Origin: Mycoplasmatota bacterium
GTDB taxonomy: Bacteria; Bacillota_I; Bacilli_A; RF39; UBA660
NCBI GenBank assembly: GCA_022763805.1
Contig: JALERC010000079.1
Location: 12,620-76,619 of the forward strand
Direction of reading: 5' to 3'
DNA: 64,000 nt
Positions 13,947 through 64,000 of this stretch are shown here, piece after piece (position 1 is the first letter of the stretch; every line of letters starts with the position of its first letter). The notes under the pieces are model-generated. The model did no database searches. It was given only the letters and a program-made list of their open reading frames with translations, and was not told the origin of the DNA. The position numbers were made by a program, and so were the translations under genes.

Positions 13947-14906
13947 CTAGTCTTCGTCACGGAATTTAAGTCCCATATCTTTAATTTTGTCGATAACTTC
14001 TTTTAAAGATTTTTTACCTAAATTACGTATTTTCATCATTTCAAGTTCTGATTTTTCTACTAAATCACCTAATGTGTTAATATTAGCTCTTTTTAAACAA
14101 TTATAAGCTCTTACTGAGAAATCTAAATCATCAATAGATGTTTCTAATTTCTTTAATTTGCTATCTTCTTGTTTTGCAGACATTACACCTGTAGTATCAG
14201 CTAATTCACTTAAATTAGTTATAATATTTAAATGTTCAATTAATATTTTAGCACCTAAAGCCATTGCTTCTTCAGGTTTTAAAGATCCATTTGTATAAAC
14301 ATTCATAATTAATTTGTCATAGTTAGCATCTTGTCCAACACGAGCACTTTCTACTTCATAACTAATTCTTTCAATAGGTGAATATAAAGCATCTATTGGA
14401 ATGAAACCAATCTTTGCATTTTCAATATGTTGTTTATTTTCATTAGCTGGAACATAACCGCGTCCGTTAGCAACGATCATTTCCATATCAAGCTTTCCAC
14501 CTTTAGCTAATGTTGCGATAACTTGATCAGGATTCATAACTTCAACATCAGCATCGCATGTAATGTCTCCAGCAGTTACTACTCCTTCTTTGTCAGCGTA
14601 TAAATGTATAGTTTTATTTCCTTCTACATTTTTCTTTAATACTACGCTTTTTAAGTTTAAAACAATAGTTGTTACATCTTCTACTACACCATCGATAGTT
14701 TGGAATTCATGCATAACCCCATCAATTTTTACTGCTACAATAGCACTACCCGGCATATTAGATAACATTACTCTTCTAAGAGCGTTACCTATAGTTGTTC
14801 CAAAACCTCTTTCTAAAGGTTCTAATTCAAATTTTCCATAATTATTATTTTCAACATAATCAGTAATTTTAAATACTGGTTTTTCAAAGTTTAACACTAT
14901 TTTCAC
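13947..14906 (-). CDS. rpoA: DNA-directed RNA polymerase subunit alpha
   Basis: Conserved NTD/CTD sequence ([16 protein letters not shown]...). Confidence 0.95.
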
Positions 14907-14917
14907 TCCTTTTCATT

Positions 14918-15301
14918 TTATCCACGAGGACGTTTTGGTGGACGACATCCATTATGTGGAATAGGTGTTACATCAGAAATTGAAGTAATTTCTAAACCTG
15001 CAGTTTGTAAAGAACGGATAGCTGTTTCACGTCCTGAACCTAAACCTTTTACAAATACTTCAACTTTTTTCATACCCATATCAACAGCTGCTTTTCCAGC
15101 TGCTTCTGCTGACATACCTGCAGCAAATGGAGTTGATTTTTTGCTTCCTTTAAATCCTAGAGTACCAGCTGAAGCCCAACTAATTGCATTACCATCATTA
15201 TCACTTATAGTAACGATAGTATTGTTAAATGTTGAATGAATAAATGCTTTTCCTTCTGGTACATTCTTTTTAACTTTACGTTTTCTTGGTTTATAAGCCA
15301 T
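14918..15301 (-). CDS. rpsK: 30S ribosomal protein S11
   Basis: Conserved S11 sequence. Confidence 0.95.
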
Positions 15302-15331
15302 TTATATAACCTCCTTATTTATTAGTTACAA

Positions 15332-15697
15332 TTATTTTTTCTTATTAGCAACTACTTTACCTTTACCTTTACGAGTTCTAGCATTTCTATTAGTTCTTTG
15401 ACCTCTAACTGGAAGTCCTTTTTTATGTCTAGTTCCTTGGTAAGAGTTAATTTCCATTTTAGTTTTAATATTCATGTTTACTTCACGACGTAAGTCACCT
15501 TCAGTAACATATTTATTAACTTCTTCACGGATTCTTGCTAATTCATCATTATCAAGATCTCCAGCTTTTTTATCGAAATCTACTTTAGCATCTTTTAAGA
15601 TCTTTTGAGATAAACTTCTTCCGATACCATAAATATAAGTCATTGCTATTTCGATTCTTTTATTATTTGGTATATCTACACCTTTAATACGTGCCAT
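15332..15697 (-). CDS. rpsM: 30S ribosomal protein S13
   Basis: [18 protein letters not shown]...; conserved. Confidence 0.95.
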
Positions 15698-15711
15698 TCA
15701 AACACCTCCTA

Positions 15712-15825
15712 TTAACCTTGTCTTTGATTATGTTTTGGATTAACACATCTAACTTCTATTCTTCCATTACGTCTTATTATTTTACATTTGTCGCATATTT
15801 TTTTAACTGATGCTCTTACTTTCAT
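15712..15825 (-). CDS. rpmJ: 50S ribosomal protein L36 (37 aa; absent from the supplied ORF track)
   Basis: Hand translation: [37 protein letters not shown], with the zinc-ribbon Cys pattern. Located between infA and rpsM as expected. Confidence 0.9.
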
Positions 15826-15844
15826 TTTTATTCCTCCTACTTTA

Positions 15845-16060
15845 TTATTTTCGGTAAGTTATGCGCCCACGTGTTAAATCATATGGTGAAAGTTCAACAG
15901 TTACTGTATCACCTGGTAAGATGCGAATATAATTCATTCGGATTTTACCAGAAACGTGAGCTTCTACAGTATGTTTGTTTTCTAATTCAACCTTGAAAAT
16001 ACCTCCAGGCTTTACTTCAATAACTTTTCCTTGTACTTCGATTGTATCTGTTTTAGCCAT
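15845..16060 (-). CDS. infA: Translation initiation factor IF-1
   Basis: [15 protein letters not shown]...; S1-like fold sequence. Confidence 0.95.
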
Positions 16061-16340
16061 TTAATCACCTCTTTGTTTTATTATAATCACTAGATAAAAT
16101 ATTTTATATTAGAAAACTTGATAATAATTTTATATATTTATCTAGAGATATTATACCATCTTTTTACCTTTTGGTCACTAGGAATTCTATACAGTAAATG
16201 TATGAATTCCAGTATACCATAAAGATGGAGTAGCATTAAGACTAAAATGTCATATGCTTAGTAAGCGATCTAACTTTTTAAATATAATCTTTAAAAGTAC
16301 GCGTATCGCCTATTCAACTAAATGTTGAAAATATCATTTA

Positions 16341-17000
16341 TTATAGTGAGCTAACTATAATTTTTTCTATTTGTTCAAAAGTATTTTCTTTTCCTAAATC
16401 ACTATTAACATGATATAGGACATTTTTTTTCTCATAATAATCGATTAATGGTTGAGTTTTTTCTAAGTAAGTTTGAAATCTGCCATCAAATGTTTCGGCA
16501 TTATCATCACTTCTTTTTACTAACTCAGTACCACAATTATCACAAATACCAGCTTGTTTTGGTTTAGCAGCATCTATATTTTCGTTAAATACACTTCCAC
16601 ATTTAGGACAACTAACTCTTCCTACAATACGACTTTTAGCAACCTCTTTGTCAATGTCTAAGACAATAACATAACCTAATTCTCTATTTAATTTATTAAG
16701 AATTACCTCGTATTGTTCTGCTTGTTCTAAATTTCTTGGAAATCCATCTAAAATATATCCATTATCACAATCACTTTGTTGTAATCTTTCAGTGATAAGT
16801 TCTAACATAATATCACTACTAACAAAACGTCCATTGGAAATTTCGTTAGCTATATATCTTCCTCTTTCAGAATCTTCTTTAGCAGAATTTCTTAAAATAT
16901 CTCCAGTCGAGATGTGAGGTATATTATATTTTGAGCTCACCATCACAGCTTGTGTTCCTTTGCCAGCCGCTGGTGGAGCGATAAAAATTATATTTTTCAT
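16341..17000 (-). CDS. adk: Adenylate kinase (zinc-binding lid CPKCG...CDNCG)
   Basis: P-loop GAGKGTQA, LID domain with 4 Cys; follows secY. Confidence 0.95.
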   Translation of the reverse strand: MKNIIFIAPPAAGKGTQAVMVSSKYNIPHISTGDILRNSAKEDSERGRYIANEISNGRFVSSDIMLELITERLQQSDCDNGYILDGFPRNLEQAEQYEVILNKLNRELGYVIVLDIDKEVAKSRIVGRVSCPKCGSVFNENIDAAKPKQAGICDNCGTELVKRSDDNAETFDGRFQTYLEKTQPLIDYYEKKNVLYHVNSDLGKENTFEQIEKIIVSSL

Positions 17001-28423: not shown

Positions 28424-28688
28424 ATTGCTCATAATCATTTTTAAACATAGGTAAAAAAATGTTTGCTAAATATTGTTTTGTCTCTGCATCTTCTATTGTT
28501 TCTATTCCAAACTTTCTAGTTGGTAATACAATAACTTTTGCATACTTAACATTTTCTGATAAATCACCATTTGATAAATTTTCTACTAACATTAGATAGT
28601 AAATGTTTTTTTCTTCATAAGTTTCACAAACTGTATATGACTTTCCATCTGTCAAATTTAAGATATCTAATTTTTCTATGAAATTCAT
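28422..28688 (-). CDS. Small acidic protein, DUF1292 (UPF0473/YrzB)-like
   Basis: 88 aa. LNLTDGKSYTV...YYLMLV...IETIEDAETKQYLANIF resembles the DUF1292 pattern. Start overlaps the upstream stop (ATGA). Confidence 0.4.
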   Translation of the reverse strand: MNFIEKLDILNLTDGKSYTVCETYEEKNIYYLMLVENLSNGDLSENVKYAKVIVLPTRKFGIETIEDAETKQYLANIFLPMFKNDYEQ

Positions 28689-30619
28689 AGTGATCTACCT
28701 CCCATTTCTTGTTGAAGTTCTTGAACTTTAGTGACATCGTTAATATTCCAGAAACCTTCAGCTTGATTATTTTCACCAGTTAGACAAGCACTAATTTCTC
28801 CTCCTTGATCAACAAGTTTTTGAATACTGTTATCATCTTGGACAAATTTAAATGATCCATCTGGCATTTTAATAGTAACACCAATAATATCTCTTTCTAA
28901 ACTTCTTTCATGAATAGGTGTATATGGATTTGTTCTATTTACAGCATCATACTGATTATTATATATATCAGCACCTTCATTTACAGTAATTTTATCACCC
29001 ATAGATATTTGAGAATAGATTTCATTTTTTAACATACCATCATCTAATTCATTTCCGTGTGTCATATCTTCTATAGTTGTTTCTATTTCTTGATTAGTAG
29101 GTTCAGGTATACTATTTGACAAGTTATTAATTAATGGTGAGGCAGCTAGTGTAACAGTAATAGCGGCAATAACTGCTGCAGCAACTTTTTTAATTTTATT
29201 TTTTACATCTTCTTTTTTAAGTTTAGAACGTACCATTGAAACTATTCCTAATTGTTGTGGAGCGTTATTAACCTCATTTATTTCTTCATTATTCGAAATT
29301 TCATTATTATTGTTTACATTTTGTTCGTTTGATAATTCATGATAGAATGAAGCTTCTTCAATTTTAACATCAGGAACTTGTTCTAAAATATTTTTAACAT
29401 TGCTATTTACATATTCTTTTCTGCATTGTAAAGAACTTCTTATAGATTTATATTGAGCTAACCTGTTAGAATCTAATCTCATTTGAGATTTATCTATCTC
29501 TTCACTATAAGCTCTTTTTTTCATTCTTTCCACCATATCATGATGTTTTGAATAATCACCTACTAGTTCTTTTCCATCAGAAATAATTCTATTTAATTCT
29601 AATAATCTATTTTCTAATTCTACTCTTTCCTCTGATGTAATATTAACATCGCATAATTGATCAAGAACAACATTTCTATCTTCTATATATAGATTAGTAA
29701 TCTCATTATAATCATTTCTAAAATCTTCTAATTCTTTATATCTTTCTAATTTTTCAATTCTTTCTATTCTATTTCTTAAATTTTCTTTTGTTGTTTCTTT
29801 ATATTGGTAATTATTAGGGTCTTTTAATTTTTCTTCTAAATCATTTATTAAATTATCATATTTCTCAATTTCTTCATTTCTTTTTATTTCATCTAAATCA
29901 TTATAATTAGAAAATAATCTTTTTTTATAAATATTTAAATCTATTAATGCATCATCAATTGATAAAGATCCATTTTGTAATTCACTAATCATTCCATTTA
30001 GTTGTGATTCAAAATTTAATTTTAATAATTGTCTAGATTCTCTTCTTGTACCTATTTTAATTAATAATTCCTCATAATCTTTGTCGTATTTATTAACTTC
30101 ATTTTCAAAAAATTTAATTTTCTTTTCTTCACTACTAGCGTTATCTAAGAAACCTTGATGTATATCTATTTCTTCTGATAAATTGTTTAGTTGATCATTA
30201 TTGGTTTTAATTTTATTATTATTGTTTTCTATAATTCTTGAATTAATATCAAATTCATCAAGGATACGTTCATAATCATAACTATTTTTATCTAAATTAT
30301 TCATTTTTTGTTCATATTCTTTATTTAATTCTATTAATTTATTATTATCTTCAGTTAATTGATTAATTATTTCAGATATACTATTAGCTTCAGCAGATAA
30401 AATACTTATTTTTTCTCTTTTTGGTTGTAAAAATTCATCAAATCTTTTATTTAATTCTTCTTCATCAGGTTTTTTTAAATTTCTTGCTTTATTTTCAAGT
30501 TCCCTTATTTCATCACTTAAATTTTCTATTGCTTCATATCTAGCATTTTCATCCATAATCTGAAAATTAACATTATTTTTTAACTCTTGTAATAATTGTA
30601 ATAATTGTTCTTTATTCAT
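28685..30619 (-). CDS. Large coiled-coil protein with a single TM helix near residue ~490 and a ~140-aa extracellular C-terminal domain; function unknown
   Basis: 644 aa. The N-terminal ~480 aa are Asn/Glu/Lys/Leu-rich with heptad periodicity. TM KIKKVAAAVIAAITVTLAASPLI. Strong RBS (AGGAGG) and a consensus promoter upstream. Confidence 0.6.
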   Translation of the reverse strand: MNKEQLLQLLQELKNNVNFQIMDENARYEAIENLSDEIRELENKARNLKKPDEEELNKRFDEFLQPKREKISILSAEANSISEIINQLTEDNNKLIELNKEYEQKMNNLDKNSYDYERILDEFDINSRIIENNNNKIKTNNDQLNNLSEEIDIHQGFLDNASSEEKKIKFFENEVNKYDKDYEELLIKIGTRRESRQLLKLNFESQLNGMISELQNGSLSIDDALIDLNIYKKRLFSNYNDLDEIKRNEEIEKYDNLINDLEEKLKDPNNYQYKETTKENLRNRIERIEKLERYKELEDFRNDYNEITNLYIEDRNVVLDQLCDVNITSEERVELENRLLELNRIISDGKELVGDYSKHHDMVERMKKRAYSEEIDKSQMRLDSNRLAQYKSIRSSLQCRKEYVNSNVKNILEQVPDVKIEEASFYHELSNEQNVNNNNEISNNEEINEVNNAPQQLGIVSMVRSKLKKEDVKNKIKKVAAAVIAAITVTLAASPLINNLSNSIPEPTNQEIETTIEDMTHGNELDDGMLKNEIYSQISMGDKITVNEGADIYNNQYDAVNRTNPYTPIHERSLERDIIGVTIKMPDGSFKFVQDDNSIQKLVDQGGEISACLTGENNQAEGFWNINDVTKVQELQQEMGGRSL

Positions 30620-36050: not shown

Positions 36051-36947
36051 TTACTCCTTTACATCTAAAATTTCCAAAATTCTATTTAAATCATTAACGT
36101 TATTAAAACAAATTTCTATTTTATTATCCTTTATTTTAACTTTAGTATCTAATTTATCTCTTAACATATCTTCTACATATTTATATTCATTTGTAGATTC
36201 AGTCTTTCTTTTTTGTTCAACTCTTTTATGAACTTCTTCCTTTTGAGATATTTTTTCAACTTCTCTAACTGGTAATTTTTCATTTACTATTTGATTAGCT
36301 AAATTAATCATTTCATTTTGTGATTCTAATTTACTAATAGCCCTAGCATGTCCCATAGTAATTTCATTTTTTATTACCATTTGTTGAACTTCATTAGGTA
36401 AACGAAGTAATCCTAGAATATTAGTTATATGACTTCTACTTTTACCAACTTTTTTAGCAAGTTCATCTTGAGTTAAATTTAATTTTTCTAACATTGATTT
36501 ATAAGCAACAGCTTCTTCAATAGCACTTAAATTTTCTCTTTGTAAATTTTCTAAAAGTGCAATCTCCATCATTTGTTCATCAGTAAAATTTCTAATTATT
36601 GCAGGAATAGTTTCCTTACCAGCAATTCTTGATGCTCTACATCTTCTTTCACCAGCTATGATTTCATAACCTTTTATACTTTTTTTAACTATAATAGGTT
36701 GAAATACACCATGTTCTTTGATAGATAAAGCAAGTTCGTTTAATGCGTCATCATCAAATTTCTTTCTTGGTTGATAAGGATTAACCCTTAATTCATCAAG
36801 TTTTAATTCGACTATTTCTTCTTTTGGAGTCGTATCATAAATTTGTTTTTCCATACTATTTAAATCCATGTTTTCAGTGTTAAATAGTTGTTCTAATCCT
36901 CTACCAAGAGCTCTTTTTCTATCTAGTTTATTGTCCATTTCTAACAA
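36051..36947 (-). CDS. parB: Chromosome partitioning protein ParB/Spo0J
   Basis: ParB box IIAGERRCRA; HTH LTQDELAKKVGKSRSHITN; follows parA. Confidence 0.9.
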   Translation of the reverse strand: MLEMDNKLDRKRALGRGLEQLFNTENMDLNSMEKQIYDTTPKEEIVELKLDELRVNPYQPRKKFDDDALNELALSIKEHGVFQPIIVKKSIKGYEIIAGERRCRASRIAGKETIPAIIRNFTDEQMMEIALLENLQRENLSAIEEAVAYKSMLEKLNLTQDELAKKVGKSRSHITNILGLLRLPNEVQQMVIKNEITMGHARAISKLESQNEMINLANQIVNEKLPVREVEKISQKEEVHKRVEQKRKTESTNEYKYVEDMLRDKLDTKVKIKDNKIEICFNNVNDLNRILEILDVKE

Positions 36948-37713
36948 TCACTTCCTTTGCTAAACTTAAATAAGCTTCCGAACCTTTATGATCAGATGCA
37001 TAGTATATTATAGGTTTTCCGTGACTTGGTGCTTCAGAAATTTTTACAAGTCTAGGAATAATTGTATCATATACTTTTTCTTTAAAATAACTTCTTATAT
37101 CTTCAACAACTTCTAGCCCTAAACATGTTCTACTATCAAGCATTGTAAGTAGTACACCTTCAATATCTAAATTTGGGTTTAAATTTTTTTGAGCTAATAA
37201 AATTGTATTAATTAACTGAGCTATACCTTCAAGTGCAAAGAATTCACATTGAACAGGAATAAGAACTGAATCAGCAGCAGTCAAAGCATTTGTAGTAAGT
37301 ATTCCTAAACTAGGAGGACAATCGATAATTATATAATCATATTCTTCTTTTGCAATATCCAAATATTTTTTTAATTGTCCGCCCATATTAAATCCAGGAA
37401 TATTTCTAGACATCTCAACTAATTCTATTTCAATACCAGCAAGATTAATAGTTGCAGGTAATATAGATAAATTTTTAAATTTTGTTTTTATAACTGTTTC
37501 TTCTAATGTAGCTTTATCTAACATCATTTCATAAATTGAATTTTTGTATTCACCTTTAGCGATTCCTAACCCAGTAGTACAGTTTCCTTGTGGGTCTAAA
37601 TCAACAAGTAGTGCTTTTCTTTTTAGTACACCTAAAGATGCAGCTAGGTTAATACTTGATGTAGTTTTTCCTACTCCACCTTTTTGGTTAACTAATGCTA
37701 TAACTTTACCCAT
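36928..37713 (-). CDS. parA: Chromosome partitioning ATPase ParA/Soj (start at MGKVIALVNQKGGVGKTT)
   Basis: Deviant Walker A KGGVGKTT. GGTGAG SD precedes the internal ATG at 37713. Confidence 0.9.
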   Translation of the reverse strand: MGKVIALVNQKGGVGKTTSSINLAASLGVLKRKALLVDLDPQGNCTTGLGIAKGEYKNSIYEMMLDKATLEETVIKTKFKNLSILPATINLAGIEIELVEMSRNIPGFNMGGQLKKYLDIAKEEYDYIIIDCPPSLGILTTNALTAADSVLIPVQCEFFALEGIAQLINTILLAQKNLNPNLDIEGVLLTMLDSRTCLGLEVVEDIRSYFKEKVYDTIIPRLVKISEAPSHGKPIIYYASDHKGSEAYLSLAKEVIVRNGQ

Positions 37714-37789
37714 TATCTCACCATTTTCTACCATTTTAATTTACATATATATTTTAACACAAAAATCAATCTATTGCTATATTAAATAA

Positions 37790-37826
37790 ATTATATAGAA
37801 AAAAGAGGAAATTATTCACCCTCTTT
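37790..37826 (-). terminator. Intrinsic terminator after ftsH (stem AAGAGG/CCTCTT then T-run); stop codon inside the loop
   Basis: Inverted repeat at 37803-37825 followed by TTTTTT on the minus strand. Confidence 0.55.
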
Positions 37827-39812
37827 TTCTTCTATTTTTTTTATAAGTTCTTCTTTAGTCATCTTAGAAGCACCTTTTATTCCTTTTTCTCTTGCTAATT
37901 CAATCAATTCATCAGTAGTTAAATCATCTAAACTAGCATCTTTAAAATCACTTTTATCAACTTCACCATCTTCATCAGGTAAACATCCATTATCAACTAA
38001 ATATTCAATTTGTTCTTTAGTTAATGTTTCATGTTCTAATAAAGTATTAGCAATCAAATCAAGTAATTTTTTATTTTCTTTTATTGTTTTAGTTGTTCTT
38101 TTGTAACATTCGTCGATAATTTTTCTCATTTCTTGGTCAATTTCATATGCTACTTGACTTGAGAAGTTTTTAGATTTATTGTAATCTCTACCTAAGAATA
38201 CACTTGATTCTTGATGTTCAAATTGAACAGGTCCTAAATCACTCATACCATATTCTGTAACCATAGCACGAGCTATTTTAGTTGCTTTTTCAAAATCATT
38301 ATGTGCTCCTGTAGTAATTTCATTAAATTCAATTTCTTCTGCAACACGTCCACCAAGTAATCCACAAATTGTTTCTAATAGTTCAGTTTTTGTAGATAAA
38401 TAAGTTTCTTCTTTAGGTAACATTAGATTATATCCACCAGCTGCACCACGAGGAACAATTGTAATTTTTTGTACTTCATTAGCACCATCTAATTTTATAC
38501 CTAAAACAGCATGTCCTGCTTCATGATAAGCTACAACTCTCTTTTCTTTTTCTGTATATTTATGAGAAGTCTTAGCAGGTCCCATAAGAACTCTATCATG
38601 AGCTTCATCAATTTCTGTCATTGTTATTTGTGATTTGCCACGTCTTACAGCAAGTAATGCAGCTTCATTTAATAAATTTTCCAAATCTGCCCCACTTAAT
38701 CCAACTGTACGTTTAGCAATATTTTTGAAATTTACTTGATTAGCAAATTTTTTGCCTCTAGCATGTACTTCTAGAATAGCTTCTCTTCCTTTTACATCTG
38801 GTAAATTTACTGTTACTTGTCTATCAAAACGTCCAGGTCTTAATAAAGCAGGATCTAATACGTCAGGTCTGTTAGTAGCAGCAAGAATAATAATACCTTC
38901 ATTAGCACCAAATCCATCCATTTCAGTAAGTAATTGGTTTAATGTTTGTTCACGTTCATCATGACCGCCACCGATACCAGAACCACGTTGACGACCTACA
39001 GCATCAATTTCATCTATAAAAATCAAACAAGGTGCAGTTTGTTTTGCTTCTTTAAACATATCTCTTACACGTGAAGCACCAACACCTACAAATAATTCAA
39101 CAAATTCAGATCCACTTATATAATAGAATGGAACATTAGCTTCACCAGCAACTGATTTAGCAAGTAATGTTTTACCAGTTCCTGGAGGACCTACTAAAAG
39201 TACACCCTTAGGAATTCTAGCACCCATATCTTGGAATCTTTTTGGATTTTTTAAGAAATCAATTAATTCTTTAACTTCTTCTTTTTCTTCATCTAATCCA
39301 GCAACTTGATCAAAAGTTACTTTATCTTTACCTGAAGTTAATCTAGCACGACTTTTTCCAAAGTCCATTGATTTATTAGCTCCACCCATTTGTTTAGTTA
39401 GGAAAAAGAATCCTAAACCAATTATTAAAATTGTTGGTAGAACATTCATCATAAATAGTATAAGAGCACTTGAATCTCTATCGTTAGTTGTATCTAATTT
39501 AAATTTATGTTCTTTTTGAGCATCATAAATTACAGATATAGATTCATTTGTTAATGGTATTCTTACAAAAAATGATTCATCTTTTTTGTAATCTTCCATT
39601 GTACCTGTTATTTCATAAACACCAGCACGTTCTAGTGGTGAAATAACAACATCTGTGACTTCGCCTTTTTCAATAGCTGTAATAAATTCATCATATGATA
39701 ATACATTTATCTTTTGTCCTAAAACATTAGTTAAATATAATATACACATCATTATTAAAATTAATGCTATATAAGGCACAAATCCTTTTTTCACATTTTT
39801 TTTATTCATCAC
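37812..39812 (-). CDS. ftsH: ATP-dependent zinc metalloprotease FtsH with an unusual C-terminal HeH/Rho-N-like tail
   Basis: AAA Walker [17 protein letters not shown] zinc site. The last ~45 aa ([33 protein letters not shown]) resemble the Rho N-terminal HeH motif. Confidence 0.9.
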
Positions 39813-44439: not shown

Positions 44440-45981
44440 TTATTTTTGTTCTAATTCTTTTAATTTTGCTTCTTTATCAATTCTTTCAAATAATGGATAA
44501 GGTTTATTTACATTATATTCATCTACTACTTCATTATAATTATTATTATTCGTTCCTAATTGTTCTAATATTCTAGTAGATGTTTCAGGTAAGAATGGTT
44601 CAAATAAAATAGCACCTTTTCTAATAGTTTCTAGTAAATTATAAATAACAGTTTCTAATCTATCATATTCATTTTCATTCTTAGCAAGAATCCATGGTGT
44701 TGTTTCATCAATATATTTATTAGCTCTTCTAAATAAATTAATAATAACTTCTACAGAATCGGCAATTCTAACATCTTCCATTAATTTTTCGATTTTATTA
44801 GGAGCATCTTTTGCATCTTCTAATAAACAACTATCTACTTCATTATTAATTTTTTTATTAGAAACTTTTCCATCAAAATATTTATTAGCCATAGAAATAG
44901 ATCTATTAACTAAATTTCCTACAACATTTGCTAAATCAGAATTAATTCTTTCAATTAACAATTCATATGTAAATGTACCATCACTTGAAAATGGAATTTC
45001 ATGTAAATAATAATATCTTAATGCATCTACACCAAATTCTTTTACAATATCATCAGCATAAACAATATTACCTTTAGATTTACTCATTTTATCTCCACCT
45101 AGTAATAACCATGGATGTCCAAATATTTTTTTAGGTAATGGTAAATCTAATGCCATTAACATAATTGGCCAATAAATTGTATGAAAACGTAAAATATCTT
45201 TACCTATTACCTGAATATCAGCTGGCCAATAATCATTAACACTATCTTTATCGATGCCATTATAACCTAAAAAGGTAATATAATTGCTAAGAGCATCTAT
45301 CCATACATAAATTACATGATCAGTGTCAAAATTAACAGGTATTCCCCATTTAAATGATGATCTTGACACACATAAATCTTGTAAACCTGGTCTAATAAAA
45401 TTATTTAAAATTTCGTTTTTTCTGCTTTCTGGTTGGATAAAATCTGGATGAGTTTCGATATAATCTTCTAATCTTTTAGCATATTTATCTAATTTTAGAA
45501 AATATGCTTCTTCTTTAGCAGGTTGTACATCTCTACCACAATCAGGACATTTACCATCGACTAATTGTGATTCAGTAAAAAATGATTCACATGGTGTACA
45601 GTATAATCCTTCATATACACCTTTATAAATATCTCCTTGATTGTATAGTTTTTCAAAAATATTTGCAACAGCCTTTTTATGAACAGGATCTGTTGTTCTT
45701 ATGAATTTATCATAACTTGTATTCATAATATCCCATATCCTTTTAATTTCACCTGACACTTCATCAACAAATTCTTGAGGAGTTTTTGAAGCATTTAAGG
45801 CTTTTTCTTCAATCTTTTGTCCATGTTCATCAGTACCTGTTTGAAAATAAACATCATATCCTTGTTGTCTTTTATATCTTGCAATTGCATCAGATAAAAC
45901 TACTTCATAAGAATTACCAATATGAGGCTTACCTGAAGCATATGCTATTGCAGTAGATATATAAAATTTCTTCTTTTCCAT
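44440..45981 (-). CDS. metG: Methionine--tRNA ligase (short form lacking the C-terminal tRNA-binding domain)
   Basis: HIGN and KMSKS motifs, zinc knuckle CPDCG; 513 aa. Confidence 0.9.
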   Translation of the reverse strand: MEKKKFYISTAIAYASGKPHIGNSYEVVLSDAIARYKRQQGYDVYFQTGTDEHGQKIEEKALNASKTPQEFVDEVSGEIKRIWDIMNTSYDKFIRTTDPVHKKAVANIFEKLYNQGDIYKGVYEGLYCTPCESFFTESQLVDGKCPDCGRDVQPAKEEAYFLKLDKYAKRLEDYIETHPDFIQPESRKNEILNNFIRPGLQDLCVSRSSFKWGIPVNFDTDHVIYVWIDALSNYITFLGYNGIDKDSVNDYWPADIQVIGKDILRFHTIYWPIMLMALDLPLPKKIFGHPWLLLGGDKMSKSKGNIVYADDIVKEFGVDALRYYYLHEIPFSSDGTFTYELLIERINSDLANVVGNLVNRSISMANKYFDGKVSNKKINNEVDSCLLEDAKDAPNKIEKLMEDVRIADSVEVIINLFRRANKYIDETTPWILAKNENEYDRLETVIYNLLETIRKGAILFEPFLPETSTRILEQLGTNNNNYNEVVDEYNVNKPYPLFERIDKEAKLKELEQK

Positions 45982-45994
45982 ATTATTCCTCCTT

Positions 45995-46250
45995 AAATTA
46001 TTATTCCAAGTTGATCATTAACATATAAAAAAACCACACCCTAAACTAAGGGCGTGATTACGCGGTACCACCTTATTCATAATATATTTAAAATATATTA
46101 CCTCAAACATTTAACGCATGTATACGTTCTAACCTACATATCGATTAAAAAGTTCCGGAACCATTCGAAATAGACATCTTATATTTAGCTCTCACCTTAT
46201 CTAAACTCTCTTTGATAATATTCTATTTTTCTTTCCATCACAACTTGTTG
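45995..46250 (-). promoter_or_regulatory. T-box riboswitch leader of metG. It has an AGAGA box, a GGTGA kink-turn, an AUG (Met) specifier, the T-box sequence AAGGTGGTACCGCG and a terminator (CACGCCC...GGGTGTG + U8). The promoter is TTGAAG-N17-TATAAT at 46256-46284.
   Basis: Reverse complement of 46061-46078 is the canonical T-box motif. A terminator hairpin at ~46030-46060 is followed by TTTTTTT. Confidence 0.8.
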
Positions 46251-58661: not shown

Positions 58662-59114
58662 TTACATTCTTTTATTTTTAAAAAAATCTTGTAAAATTTC
58701 TAAAGATTCTTCATTTTTCAAATTTATAACTTCACACATTTTATGTGTATTTTTTTCATTAAATAAAGTACCTATACTTTCAACATATCCAAATCTTTTT
58801 GATTCAATACCATAATATATTTTTTTAATTCTTGATTGTATTATTGCGCCACAACACATTAAACATGGTTCTAAAGTAACATACAATTCACATTCGTCTA
58901 AATGCCATGTTTTCATTTTTTTGCACGCTTTTTCGATAGCTATAATTTCTGCATGTTTTATAGAATTTTTTTTCTTTTCTTTCTCATTGTGTCCTCTAGA
59001 TATAATTTTACCATTTCTTACTATTATTGCCCCAACAGGAACATCATCTGATTTTAACGATTTTTTAGCTTCTTTTATCATTTCTTTAATATATTCTTCT
59101 TTCATACATATCAC
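58662..59114 (-). CDS. tadA: tRNA-specific adenosine deaminase
   Basis: HAEIIAI...PCLMCCGAI deaminase zinc motifs. Confidence 0.9.
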   Translation of the reverse strand: MICMKEEYIKEMIKEAKKSLKSDDVPVGAIIVRNGKIISRGHNEKEKKKNSIKHAEIIAIEKACKKMKTWHLDECELYVTLEPCLMCCGAIIQSRIKKIYYGIESKRFGYVESIGTLFNEKNTHKMCEVINLKNEESLEILQDFFKNKRM

Positions 59115-59117
59115 CTA

Positions 59118-59196
59118 TAAAAAAAGCGCACACACTTAGAGGATCTTAAGGCTGCTGAATTCCTTCTCTGACCTGGTTCAACCATAAATGTTGCGC
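59118..59196 (-). ncRNA. ffs: Signal recognition particle RNA, small (4.5S-type). Core: GCGCAACAUUUAUGGUUGAACCAGGUCAGAGAAGGAAUUCAGCAGCCUUAAGAUCCUCUAAGUGUGUGCGC + U-tract.
   Basis: Reverse complement contains the domain IV consensus ACCAGGUCAG...GGAA...CAGCAGCC. Terminal helix GCGCA/UGCGC. Promoter TTGATT-N17-TATATT at 59203-59231. Same tadA/dnaX neighbourhood as B. subtilis scr. Confidence 0.7.
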
Positions 59197-59344
59197 AATA
59201 TAAATATACTATATATTAATAAATTAATCAATACAAATCAGATAATTATAGACTATTTTTTAATATAAATTCTCTATATTTTTATTTCCTGAGAAATATA
59301 AAACATTTTTGAGTAAAATATATTTCCTGAGAAATATAAAATAC

Positions 59345-59362
59345 ATGTTTCACGTGAAACAT
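59345..59362. promoter_or_regulatory. parS site 1: perfect palindrome aTGTTTCACGTGAAACAt
   Basis: Matches the ParB/Spo0J parS consensus TGTTNCACGTGAAACA at 16/16. Confidence 0.85.
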
Positions 59363-59388
59363 ATATTTATTCGATAAACTATAAAAAA

Positions 59389-59410
59389 GAATGTTTCACG
59401 TGAAACATTC
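59389..59410. promoter_or_regulatory. parS site 2: perfect palindrome within GAATGTTTCACGTGAAACATTC. It also forms the hairpin of the gyrA terminator (followed by U6 on the minus strand).
   Basis: 16/16 match to parS; 22-bp perfect inverted repeat, then TTTTTT. Confidence 0.85.
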
Positions 59411-59421
59411 TTCTATATTAT

Positions 59422-61914
59422 TTATTCTTCAGTATTATTTTCTTTTGTAGCTTCGTTTGTTGATAAGTCCTCGTTTTGGATATTTTCTTCGATTTCTTCT
59501 TTTTCAATTGTCTCAACTGTGCTTACTTTTTGATCACCTTTAAGATTAATAAGTTTTACACCTTGAGCAACCCTACCGGTTGTTGAAATTTGTAGAGATG
59601 ACATTCTAATAATAATACCACTGTTTGTAACAATCATTACATCCTCTTCATTGTGAATTGTTTTGAATGCCACGATATTACCATTTTTTTCTGTGATATT
59701 TAATGCTTTAACACCTTTGCTACCACGATGTGTCATTCTATATTCTTCTAATTTAGTTTTCTTTCCATAACCTTTTTCAGTTACAACTAAAATTTCTTCT
59801 CCTGGTTCAGCTATTTCACATCCAACAGCTATTCCGTCACCTACATCAATTCCACGAACACCAGCTGCACTTCTACCCATAATACGAATTTCATTTTCAT
59901 TAAATCTAATCATTCTACCATTTGATGAAGCAATTAATATTTCATTATCGCCGTTTGTTTTTTGAACAGATAATAATTCATCTTCATCTTTTAATGTAAT
60001 TGCAATTTTACCATTAGATCTTATGTTTTCAAATTCTTTTATATCTGTTCTTTTTACCAAACCATTTTGTGTACAAAATACAATATTTCCATTATGTTCA
60101 TTATTTCCCACTTTTAACATTGCTTTAACAATTTCATCTTTTTCAATTGGTAGTAAATTAATAACAGGTATACCTTTAGATTGTCTATTAAATGATGGTA
60201 TTTCGTATCCTTTGATTCTATATACTTTACCTTTATTAGTAAAGAACATAATATAATCGTGCGTTGTCATAGAAATAATGTTTTCAACAAAGTCTTCTTC
60301 GTTTGTAGACATTCCTTTAACCCCTACACCACCTCTGTTTTGTGTTTTGTAAGTTTCACTAGTCATACGTTTAATATAACCTTTGTTTGTAATTGTAATT
60401 ACAACATCTTCAACAGGGATTAATGATTCGTCTTCAATATAATCTATAGCAGTCATATCTATTTTAGTTCTTCTTTCATCAGCAAATCTTTGTTTGATTT
60501 CTAATAATTCATTTTTAATAATTTCTAGAACTTTTTCTTCACTAGCTAAAATAGCTTTATAATTAGCAATTGCTTTCAATAAGTCTTCTAATTCAGATTC
60601 AATTTTGTTTCTTTCTAATCCTGTTAATCTTCTTAATTTCATCTCAAGAATAGCATCAGATTGAACTTCATCTAAATTAAATCTTTCTTTTAACTTAGTT
60701 TTAGCAACTTCGTCACTTTCTGATTCTTTAATTATTTTAATTACTGCATCTATATTATCTAGTGCAATTTTTAAACCTTCTAATATATGAACTCTTTTTT
60801 CAGCTTTATCAAGTTCAAATTTAGTTCTTCTAATAATTATTTCTTTTTGGTAATCAATATATTTTGAAATGATTTCTTTTAAATTTAAAGTCTTAGGTTG
60901 ACCTTGATCTAACATTAGAAAAATAATTCCAAATGTAGATTGTAATGAAGTGTGTTTATATAAATTGTTTAAGACCACATTAGCATTAGCTTCTTTTTTA
61001 AGAGTAACAACAATTTTTAAACCATTTTCAAGATTTGTTTCTTCATGATAATCTGCAATTCCTTCAATTACTTTATCTCTTACTAATTCCGCAATCTTTT
61101 GTTTTAAATCTGATGTGTTAACACCATAAGGTATTTCTGTAATAATAATTTTAGATTTAGTATTAGATTCTTCAATTTCAGCTTTTGCTCTTATAGTTAT
61201 ACTTCCTCTACCTGTCTCATAAGCCTTTTTAATACCACTATTTCCCAATATAGTAGCACCAGTCGGAAAGTCAGGACCTTTAATATATTCCATCATTTCA
61301 GATACTGTAATATCTTTATTATCAATATAAGCAACACAACCATCTATAACTTCTCCTAAATTATGTGGTGGAATATTTGTTGCCATACCAACAGCAATAC
61401 CCATAGTACCATTTACTAATATGTTAGGGAATCTACTAGGTAAAACTTCTGGTTCTTTTTCAGTTTCGTCAAAATTAGGTACAAAATTAACTGTATCTTT
61501 TCCAATGTCTCTAATTAATTCCAATGAAATTTTAGCAAGTTTAGATTCTGTATAACGCATAGCAGCAGCGCCGTCTCCGTCCATGTTACCAAAGTTACCA
61601 TGTCCATCAACAAGCATATATCTATAACTAAAGTCTTGTGCCATTCTTACCATTGCTTCATAAATTGAAGAATCACCATGTGGATGATATTTACCCATAA
61701 CATCCCCGACAATTCTAGCACATTTACGATATTGTTTATCTGGTGTATAACCAGAATTATACATTGAATATAGAATTCTTCTATGTACAGGCTTTAAACC
61801 ATCTCTTAAATCAGGTAATGCTCTTGCAACAATTACACTCATTGAATATTCAAGGAAGGAACTTTGTACTTCATCAACTATATTATTTTGTTCAATTCTA
61901 TCTGTTTTTTCCAT
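59422..61914 (-). CDS. gyrA: DNA gyrase subunit A
   Basis: Active-site region AAMRYTE; GyrA box; C-terminal beta-pinwheel repeats; acidic tail. Confidence 0.95.
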
Positions 61915-61924
61915 AATAACCCTC

Positions 61925-64000
<2,076 letters not shown>

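Follow-up and report, generated by a model that had tools for sequence, protein, structure and literature searches.

A textbook parS pair behind gyrA in the origin region of an uncultured gut bacterium

What is the function of two identical palindromes that lie behind gyrA in the genome of an uncultured gut bacterium? The sequence TGTTTCACGTGAAACA occurs exactly twice without a mismatch in the window, the whole 64-kb stretch of DNA analysed here, for which base composition (26% G+C) predicts 1.3e-5 exact copies. Both copies agree with the 16-bp parS palindrome TGTTNCACGTGAAACA at 16 of 16 positions, and the next-best matches in the window, at 39063 and 48389, each carry three mismatches. The two copies, hereafter parS-1 and parS-2, sit in the spacer that runs from the gyrA stop codon to the SRP RNA gene, 46 bp apart from start to start with a 30-bp gap between them (Table 1). 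An earlier note on this DNA had reported two exact parS copies after gyrA, and the search bore this out. The intervals it gave, 59345-59362 and 59389-59410, are those of the extended palindromes: the first is indeed 18 bp long, while the second spans 26 bp (59387-59412) rather than 22.

Table 1. Features of the parS locus and the partition genes in window coordinates (NBS, Noc-binding site)
Feature	Coordinates	Strand	Description
ParB	36051..36938	-	295 aa; predicted parS-binding CTPase clamp
ParA/Soj-type ATPase	36928..37734	-	268 aa; deviant Walker A motif KGGVGKT at residue 18
tadA	58662-59105	-	ATG at 59105
Small SRP RNA (ffs)	59110..59205	-	Rfam RF00169, 55.1 bits (gathering score 40); downstream bound of the spacer
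Sigma-70-like promoter	59203..59231	-	TTGATT, 17 nt, TATATT; consensus match only; just upstream of the SRP RNA gene
Direct repeat copy A, 21 nt	59283..59303		NBS-like palindrome TATTTCCTGAGAAATA at 59283-59298
Direct repeat copy B, 21 nt	59321..59341		NBS-like palindrome TATTTCCTGAGAAATA at 59321-59336
parS-1	59346..59361		Exact 16-bp site inside the 18-bp palindrome 59345-59362
Terminator-like element of gyrBA	59379..59414	-	Predicted; hairpin on parS-2 (26-bp perfect palindrome) plus U-tract
parS-2	59392..59407		Exact 16-bp ParB/Spo0J consensus, 0 mismatches; 15 nt past the gyrA stop
gyrA	59422..61914	-	830 aa; NCBIfam NF004043, 1183 bits; stop 14 nt upstream of parS-2
gyrB	61925..63850	-	NF004189, 1010 bits; first gene of the gyrBA pair

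The window also encodes a protein suited to such sites. The parA-parB genes lie ~22 kb from the pair, where the earlier note had placed them, and scanning the window upheld its remark that parB itself contains no parS-like site. ParB carries the N-terminal ParA-interaction motif LGRGL at residue 11, the CTPase motif GERRCRA at residue 96 and a helix-turn-helix, GKSRSHITNILGLLRL...MGHAR, whose specificity positions in Caulobacter numbering read R173, I179, R184 and G201. Of these, R173 and G201 are invariant among parS-binding ParBs (PMC7383237); the full combination RIRG does not appear in the portion of that paper's supplements available to us. Among solved structures, B. subtilis Spo0J comes nearest (6SDK, 216 bits), with Noc structures scoring at most 161 bits. 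R173, G201, the GERRxRA motif and the N-terminal motif, together with the ParA partner, identify this protein as a cognate ParB of the parS-binding type. No second ParB paralog was found in the window, within 6 kb on either side of gyrA in the 80 relatives described below, or beside parAB in the same species and two relatives.

The placement of the partition genes differs from that in most Bacilli, where they usually form the block rsmG-noc-soj-spo0J. Here parA-parB have split off from rsmG and noc: comparison of window positions 36051-39812 with a same-species contig (L104) puts them after tilS-ftsH on the right replichore, and rsmG and noc stay left of oriC. Two relatives, L097 and L099, share this arrangement.

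The pair lies near the replication origin, as is typical of chromosomal parS. Every gene around the sites is encoded by the minus strand, and the GC skew stays negative all across the window, which indicates that the origin lies beyond position 64000. Two metagenome contigs of the same species (L101 and L104), which share 99.7-99.8% identity with the window and continue beyond its right edge, give the order mnmE, an HD-domain gene, jag, yidC, rnpA, rpmH, a spacer, dnaA, dnaN, a ComK-like gene, recF, gyrB, gyrA, the parS pair, ffs and tadA. 9-mers resembling DnaA boxes cluster in both the rpmH-dnaA and the dnaA-dnaN spacer, which are ~9.2-9.6 kb and ~7.7 kb from the pair, respectively. That the sites are origin-proximal had been proposed before, and these contigs establish it. 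No further parS was found in the 64-kb window plus the adjoining 13.7 kb on its right side (~78 kb of sequence around the origin) or near parAB, with searches extending to three mismatches in the window and in contigs L101-L103 and to two in L104 and the parAB loci.

The contigs revealed one more feature of the origin operon. The ComK-like gene between dnaN and recF (L101:7146-7631, same species, outside the window) encodes 161 aa with a ComK domain (PF06338). Relatives have a ComK-domain gene in this operon too, in L107 and as ORFs of 152-162 aa in L012 and L044.

Considering how the pair would work, we propose the route familiar from ParABS systems. ParB dimers would recognise each parS through the helix-turn-helix, bind CTP and close into clamps, which would then slide onto the flanking DNA, namely the gyrA 3' end, ffs and tadA. 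ParA would move the resulting ParB complex, so that the origin region is segregated. By analogy, CTP-gated loading of ParB at both sites with subsequent spreading and ParA-driven movement is highly probable. SMC loading at the pair, which the earlier note suggested, is a hypothesis.

The strongest argument that the sites function comes from sequence comparison with related species. A scan with the gyrA protein, keeping one genome per species, yielded 80 loci with GyrA identities of 70-78%. All belong to MAGs of uncultured Bacilli, “Tenericutes” or Mycoplasmatota from the gut, Ca. Fimihabitans and Ca. Onthousia among them, which we take to fall in the GTDB order RF39. We counted as parS-like any site with at most two mismatches and compared the 2.5 kb downstream of gyrA (150 kb in total) with the remaining sequence. 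The gyrA-downstream zone contains 358 such sites, 190 of them exact, versus one site, not exact, in the other 801 kb. At least one follows gyrA in 77 of the 80 species and at least two do so in 72, with a range of 1-14 copies per species and a median of 4. The first copy starts within 60 nt of the gyrA stop codon in 57 species, and in five of the species no nucleotide separates it from the TAA stop. L001 and L078, the nearest relatives, share the two-copy layout, with starts at +17/+61 and +3/+58, compared with +15/+61 in the window.

Conservation is concentrated on the sites themselves. Between species the 16-bp core stays constant while the flanks vary, a pattern expected of a protein-binding site. 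Within the species, both parS copies and both NBS-like motifs discussed below are invariant across ten contigs whose spacers are 99% identical; the variable sites all fall outside the four motifs and are too few for significance. In the window, the parS cluster that nearly every relative holds at this locus takes a two-copy form, and both 16-bp palindromes are almost certainly real parS sites. The earlier identification of the palindromes as canonical parS accordingly stands, with a cognate ParB and ParA in the window and comparative data that speak strongly for function.

Many relatives expand this locus. Many of their copies are found behind the SRP RNA gene or tadA, or within long tandem arrays. 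Head-to-tail parS arrays with periods of 26-126 bp occur in 24 of the 80 species, for example 14 copies of a 40-bp unit (L067). The window spacer is simpler: TRF detected no tandem array in it, nor does it hold the three or more head-to-tail units that would define one. According to a repeat finder, likeness between its two parS copies is confined to 25-nt neighbourhoods, and the flanks are not repeat units. The numbers for the relatives have a systematic bias. In 18 of the 80 species the contig ends just past gyrA, no more than 150 bp from the last detected parS in the 17 that have one (examples are L004, L007-L010, L013, L029, L042 and L072; L073 has no detected parS). Contigs that stop at the last parS imply that true copy numbers and array sizes are probably underestimated. 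Repeated parS sites probably break short-read assemblies, which makes our counts lower bounds and serves as a practical warning about array sizes read from short-read contigs.

The spacer's setting raises the question of whether the sites could be operators instead of centromeres, recognised by some other CACGTG-binding regulator that controls gyrBA read-through or ffs and tadA. A position between a terminator and the ffs promoter would suit regulation, and the spacer contains a second repeated palindrome. Yet the ParB consensus is matched over the full 16 bp, well beyond CACGTG, and no candidate regulator is encoded nearby. Moreover, copy numbers from 1 to at least 14 with regular tandem spacing are typical of centromeres and not of operators. 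We consider an operator role very improbable and retain the parS reading.

The rest of the neighbourhood is compact. After ffs, the genes tadA, dnaX, ybaB and recR follow on the same strand. The 3' end of the SRP RNA (59100-59125) consists of a GC stem and T7; the tadA ribosome-binding site and start codon lie within ~20 nt of this end with no separate promoter match, and tadA expression may rely on ffs read-through. The spacer's short ORFs are AT-rich noise without support, and an Rfam search of the spacer with permissive thresholds returned, beyond the SRP RNA, only sub-threshold chance matches to eukaryotic miRNA and snoRNA hairpins. Two observations concern other parts of the window. A T-box leader on the minus strand (46045-46250; Rfam RF00230, 97.9 bits) lies upstream of a 513-aa ORF (44440..45981) that, judging from comparison with relatives, is a class I aminoacyl-tRNA synthetase, probably MetRS. 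A 644-aa ORF on the minus strand (28685-30619) adjoins rpsR-ssb-rpsF, is kept in same-species contigs and has no Pfam match at E <=1e-5.

The earlier note had also read the second palindrome as the terminator of gyrA. On the gyrA-sense strand, parS-2 folds into a 13-pair stem with a 4-nt loop followed by U6 (dG -18.5 kcal/mol, z -5.9), and none of 200 shuffled sequences folded as well. A consensus terminator scan flags the same hairpin (13 pairs, 4-nt loop, T-rich tail), which begins ~8 nt past the gyrA stop and has only three G-C pairs in its stem. By prediction, the locus has the stem-loop and U-tract after a stop codon that mark an intrinsic terminator. The parS-1 hairpin is weaker (-12.1 kcal/mol) and lacks a clear U-tract.

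Relatives repeat this coincidence of centromere and terminator. We defined a terminator-like context as at least three extra complementary pairs beyond the core plus at least five T in the next 8 nt. It marks 15 of 57 gyrA-proximal first copies. Other copies show it less often, with 14 of 277 (Fisher p = 6.6e-6), and so do last copies, with 5 of 68 (p = 0.006). Extended palindromy as such is general, with at least three extra pairs in 35-54% of copies versus 3% of random positions; the distinguishing mark of first copies is the T-tract. Stem extensions vary by species with pairing kept (agaa/ttct, acaa/ttgt, ggaa/ttcc, ataa/ttat, gcaa/ttgc). The enrichment among first copies, together with pairing that persists despite varied extensions, suggests that dual use as centromere and terminator is recurrent, though not universal. 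With only about one relative in four carrying a terminator-like first copy, termination is not a conserved requirement.

Combining fold prediction, scan and recurrence, we lean towards the view that parS-2 is also the intrinsic terminator of gyrBA when transcribed. The proposed double role is to that extent supported, and termination stays a prediction. The additional idea that transcriptional read-through and ParB binding are mutually exclusive is speculation. It fits poorly with B. subtilis, because most parS sites there lie inside transcribed genes. Our literature search found no description of a parS acting as an intrinsic terminator.

The same folds could be taken to mean that the palindromes are RNA-level elements, a gyrBA terminator and a back-up hairpin, with a match to parS that is incidental and unused by ParB. 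Both copies do fold on the gyrA-sense strand, and parS-2 is flagged as a terminator. A terminator, however, needs no specific 16-mer, whereas the core is kept to within two mismatches in 358 copies from 77 species even as the stem extensions vary. Most copies in relatives lack a T-tract, many occur behind the SRP RNA gene or tadA or within long tandem arrays, and a cognate ParB is encoded. A purely RNA-level role is scarcely credible to us; a parS that may double as a terminator accounts better for these data.

The parS pair has company in the spacer. Two identical 21-nt repeats, 38 bp apart, lie between parS-1 and the ffs promoter, and each contains the palindrome TATTTCCTGAGAAATA. The palindrome of copy B forms the start of the very interval described by the earlier note, which made no mention of it. 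TATTTCCTGAGAAATA agrees with the Noc-binding site TATTTCCCGGGAAATA (NBS) at 14 of 16 positions, both mismatches being central, and the two copies are the only such elements in the window. In an NBS, each half-site has A as its first base and C as its sixth (PMC7383237). TATTTCCTGAGAAATA keeps A1 in both half-sites and C6 in one, the other having T, and position 7 is T in the first half; the altered position 6 is the base read by R201 of Noc.

One other account of the repeats was tried and set aside. A decayed third parS unit, composed of the 21-nt repeats and the sequence that follows, was rejected when TRF and the repeat finder detected no tandem unit, the 21 nt alone being shared; an NBS-like nature explains the repeats better.

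A protein that might bind these elements is encoded in the genome, outside the window. The same-species contig L104 carries a Noc-type ParB paralog at 14563-16554, ~11.7 kb beyond window position 64000. It directly follows rsmG, the place of noc in Bacilli, and is at least 664 aa long, with the contig ending inside the gene; the full-length counterpart in a relative (L107:14587-16602) has 671 aa. The N-terminal 200 residues score best against the Noc structures 7NG0, 7NFU and 7OL9 (189-214 bits), whereas the nearest ParBs of solved structure reach 163-175 bits. At the DNA-reading positions it has Q173, K179, N184 and R201 (sequence GKTQSTVANKLRLLNL...SERHAR), where the rule for Noc is Q173, K179/K184 and R201 (PMC7383237); position 184 is N and not K. 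The protein reaches 280 bits on the NCBIfam Noc model, under the cut-off of 315. Some 25 residues at the start of B. subtilis Noc, the segment that holds the membrane-targeting helix, are missing from this protein, which is far larger (~670 versus ~280 aa), with an insert of ~400 aa in the L107 protein that is low-complexity and rich in N, Q and P. The C-terminal segment behind the insert in the L107 protein resembles, by eye, the C-terminus of B. subtilis Noc.

Related species place canonical Noc sites at the same locus. Allowing two mismatches, the 2.5-kb post-gyrA zone contains 62 NBS and the other 801 kb contains 12, a 27-fold difference in density, and 30 of the 80 species have a canonical NBS there. 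It often stands 6-20 bp after the first parS (L034, L066, L057, L060, L048, L011 and L037). Two species go further and alternate the two sites between tadA and dnaX, in an 83-bp unit repeated 13.2 times (L044:9041-10133) and an 82-bp unit repeated 8.1 times (L033:9085-9750), each unit with a single canonical NBS and a single parS close to consensus. The two arrays carry different parS variants (AGTTTCACGTGAAACA in L044, TGTTACACGTGAAACA in L033), which suggests independent homogenisation. We found no description of such a tandem parS/Noc-site arrangement in our literature search.

How do the window elements relate to these sites? Among TATTTCNNNNGAAATA elements of relatives the core reads CCGG in 57, CTGG or CCAG in 12 and TTGG in one. 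Two C-to-T type steps separate the window core, CTGA, from CCGG, and CTGA is unique to the window species among those compared. In the closest relatives, L001 and L078, the parS pair occurs without any NBS. Judged by sequence, the two TATTTCCTGAGAAATA elements could well be diverged sites for the species' Noc-type paralog, although we stop just short of favouring this assignment; binding of the Noc-like protein to the variant sites is plausible.

A broader and more tentative proposal is that the post-gyrA spacer is a composite hub for two CTP-dependent clamps that are paralogs, with ParB loading on parS and a giant Noc-like protein on NBS or NBS-like sites. If the NBS-like sites bind the paralog, loading zones for ParB and Noc would lie side by side; the hub would load the two proteins a few bp apart and ~9 kb from oriC. 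The window would then represent a minimal form, two parS plus two diverged NBS, which relatives would enlarge to tandem arrays, including the 82-83-bp units. We regard the hub as possible, with the balance of our judgement somewhat against it. If it exists, co-loading could link the segregation of origins with control of the division site or with origin anchoring in these gut bacteria of small genome size, and the fast turnover of copy number would be a natural experiment on parS clustering.

The changed NBS-like cores also invite the reading that the pair is a decaying remnant of a larger parS array, with the functional parS elsewhere in the genome. Two copies are few beside the median of 4 and maximum of 14 in relatives, and the two C-to-T type changes in the NBS-like elements resemble decay at 26% G+C. 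Decay is hard to reconcile with two parS copies that are perfect at 16/16 and invariant in ten strains, with the two-copy layout kept by L001 and L078, and with the lack of any other parS within ~78 kb around the origin. Nor would two sites be too few, as a single parS is usually sufficient for ParABS function (PMC7333895). We judge a remnant improbable. The explanation we prefer, in which the parS pair serves the ParB and ParA of the window, parS-2 is probably a terminator and NBS-like elements lie alongside, is very likely as a whole.

With this finding, the centromere is located in a bacterium that is abundant in the human and pig gut and uncultured, and the window is placed 5-10 kb from oriC. 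Uses include genome orientation, estimates of replication rate from metagenomes and heterologous ParB/parS tools. The pair is a textbook parS pair in a lineage for which we found no published description. Species differ widely in their number of parS copies, from 1 to ~23, and why this number varies and what drives clustering are open questions in the field (PMC7333895). The post-gyrA locus, from gyrA to ffs and tadA, bears on both, with 1 to at least 14 parS over some 80 species. In about a third of species it also carries canonical Noc sites, and in about a quarter the first copy is terminator-like. Our literature search found no description of such a hot spot after gyrA that combines fast-changing parS number, terminator co-option and interleaved Noc sites.

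A close counterpart is Spo0J-Soj of B. subtilis, with which the window shares the 16-bp consensus, the ParA partner and origin-proximal sites. The right origin arm of B. subtilis also resembles the window in gene order (gyrBA, tadA, SRP RNA, dnaX, ybaB, recR, holB, pth, mfd, tilS, ftsH). B. subtilis has ~10 dispersed parS sites, mostly intragenic and one within spo0J, spread over the origin-proximal 20% of the chromosome. The window instead has both of its sites between genes, 46 bp from each other, and parB contains none, with parAB lying ~22 kb onto the right arm and away from rsmG-noc.

Other systems resemble the locus in its clustering. Caulobacter, Myxococcus, Corynebacterium, Streptomyces and Listeria likewise pack several parS sites near oriC, in clusters that span kilobases with irregular spacing; this lineage confines its sites to one or two spacers after gyrA and forms regular arrays in 24 of 80 species. 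Such arrays of a ParB-family site, for example the 14 x 40 bp of L067, recall the F plasmid centromere sopC, a tandem repeat of 12 x 43 bp. Unlike sopC, the repeat here is the chromosomal parS consensus and resides on the chromosome, and the window has two copies only. The Noc-binding sites of Bacillus and Staphylococcus have their match in the canonical motif of the relatives, and the species has an rsmG-adjacent Noc-type paralog. In B. subtilis, NBS are scattered over the chromosome except the terminus, whereas here they are concentrated beside parS, and certain species combine NBS and parS alternately within a single tandem unit; the window copies are variants that match the NBS at 14 of 16 positions.
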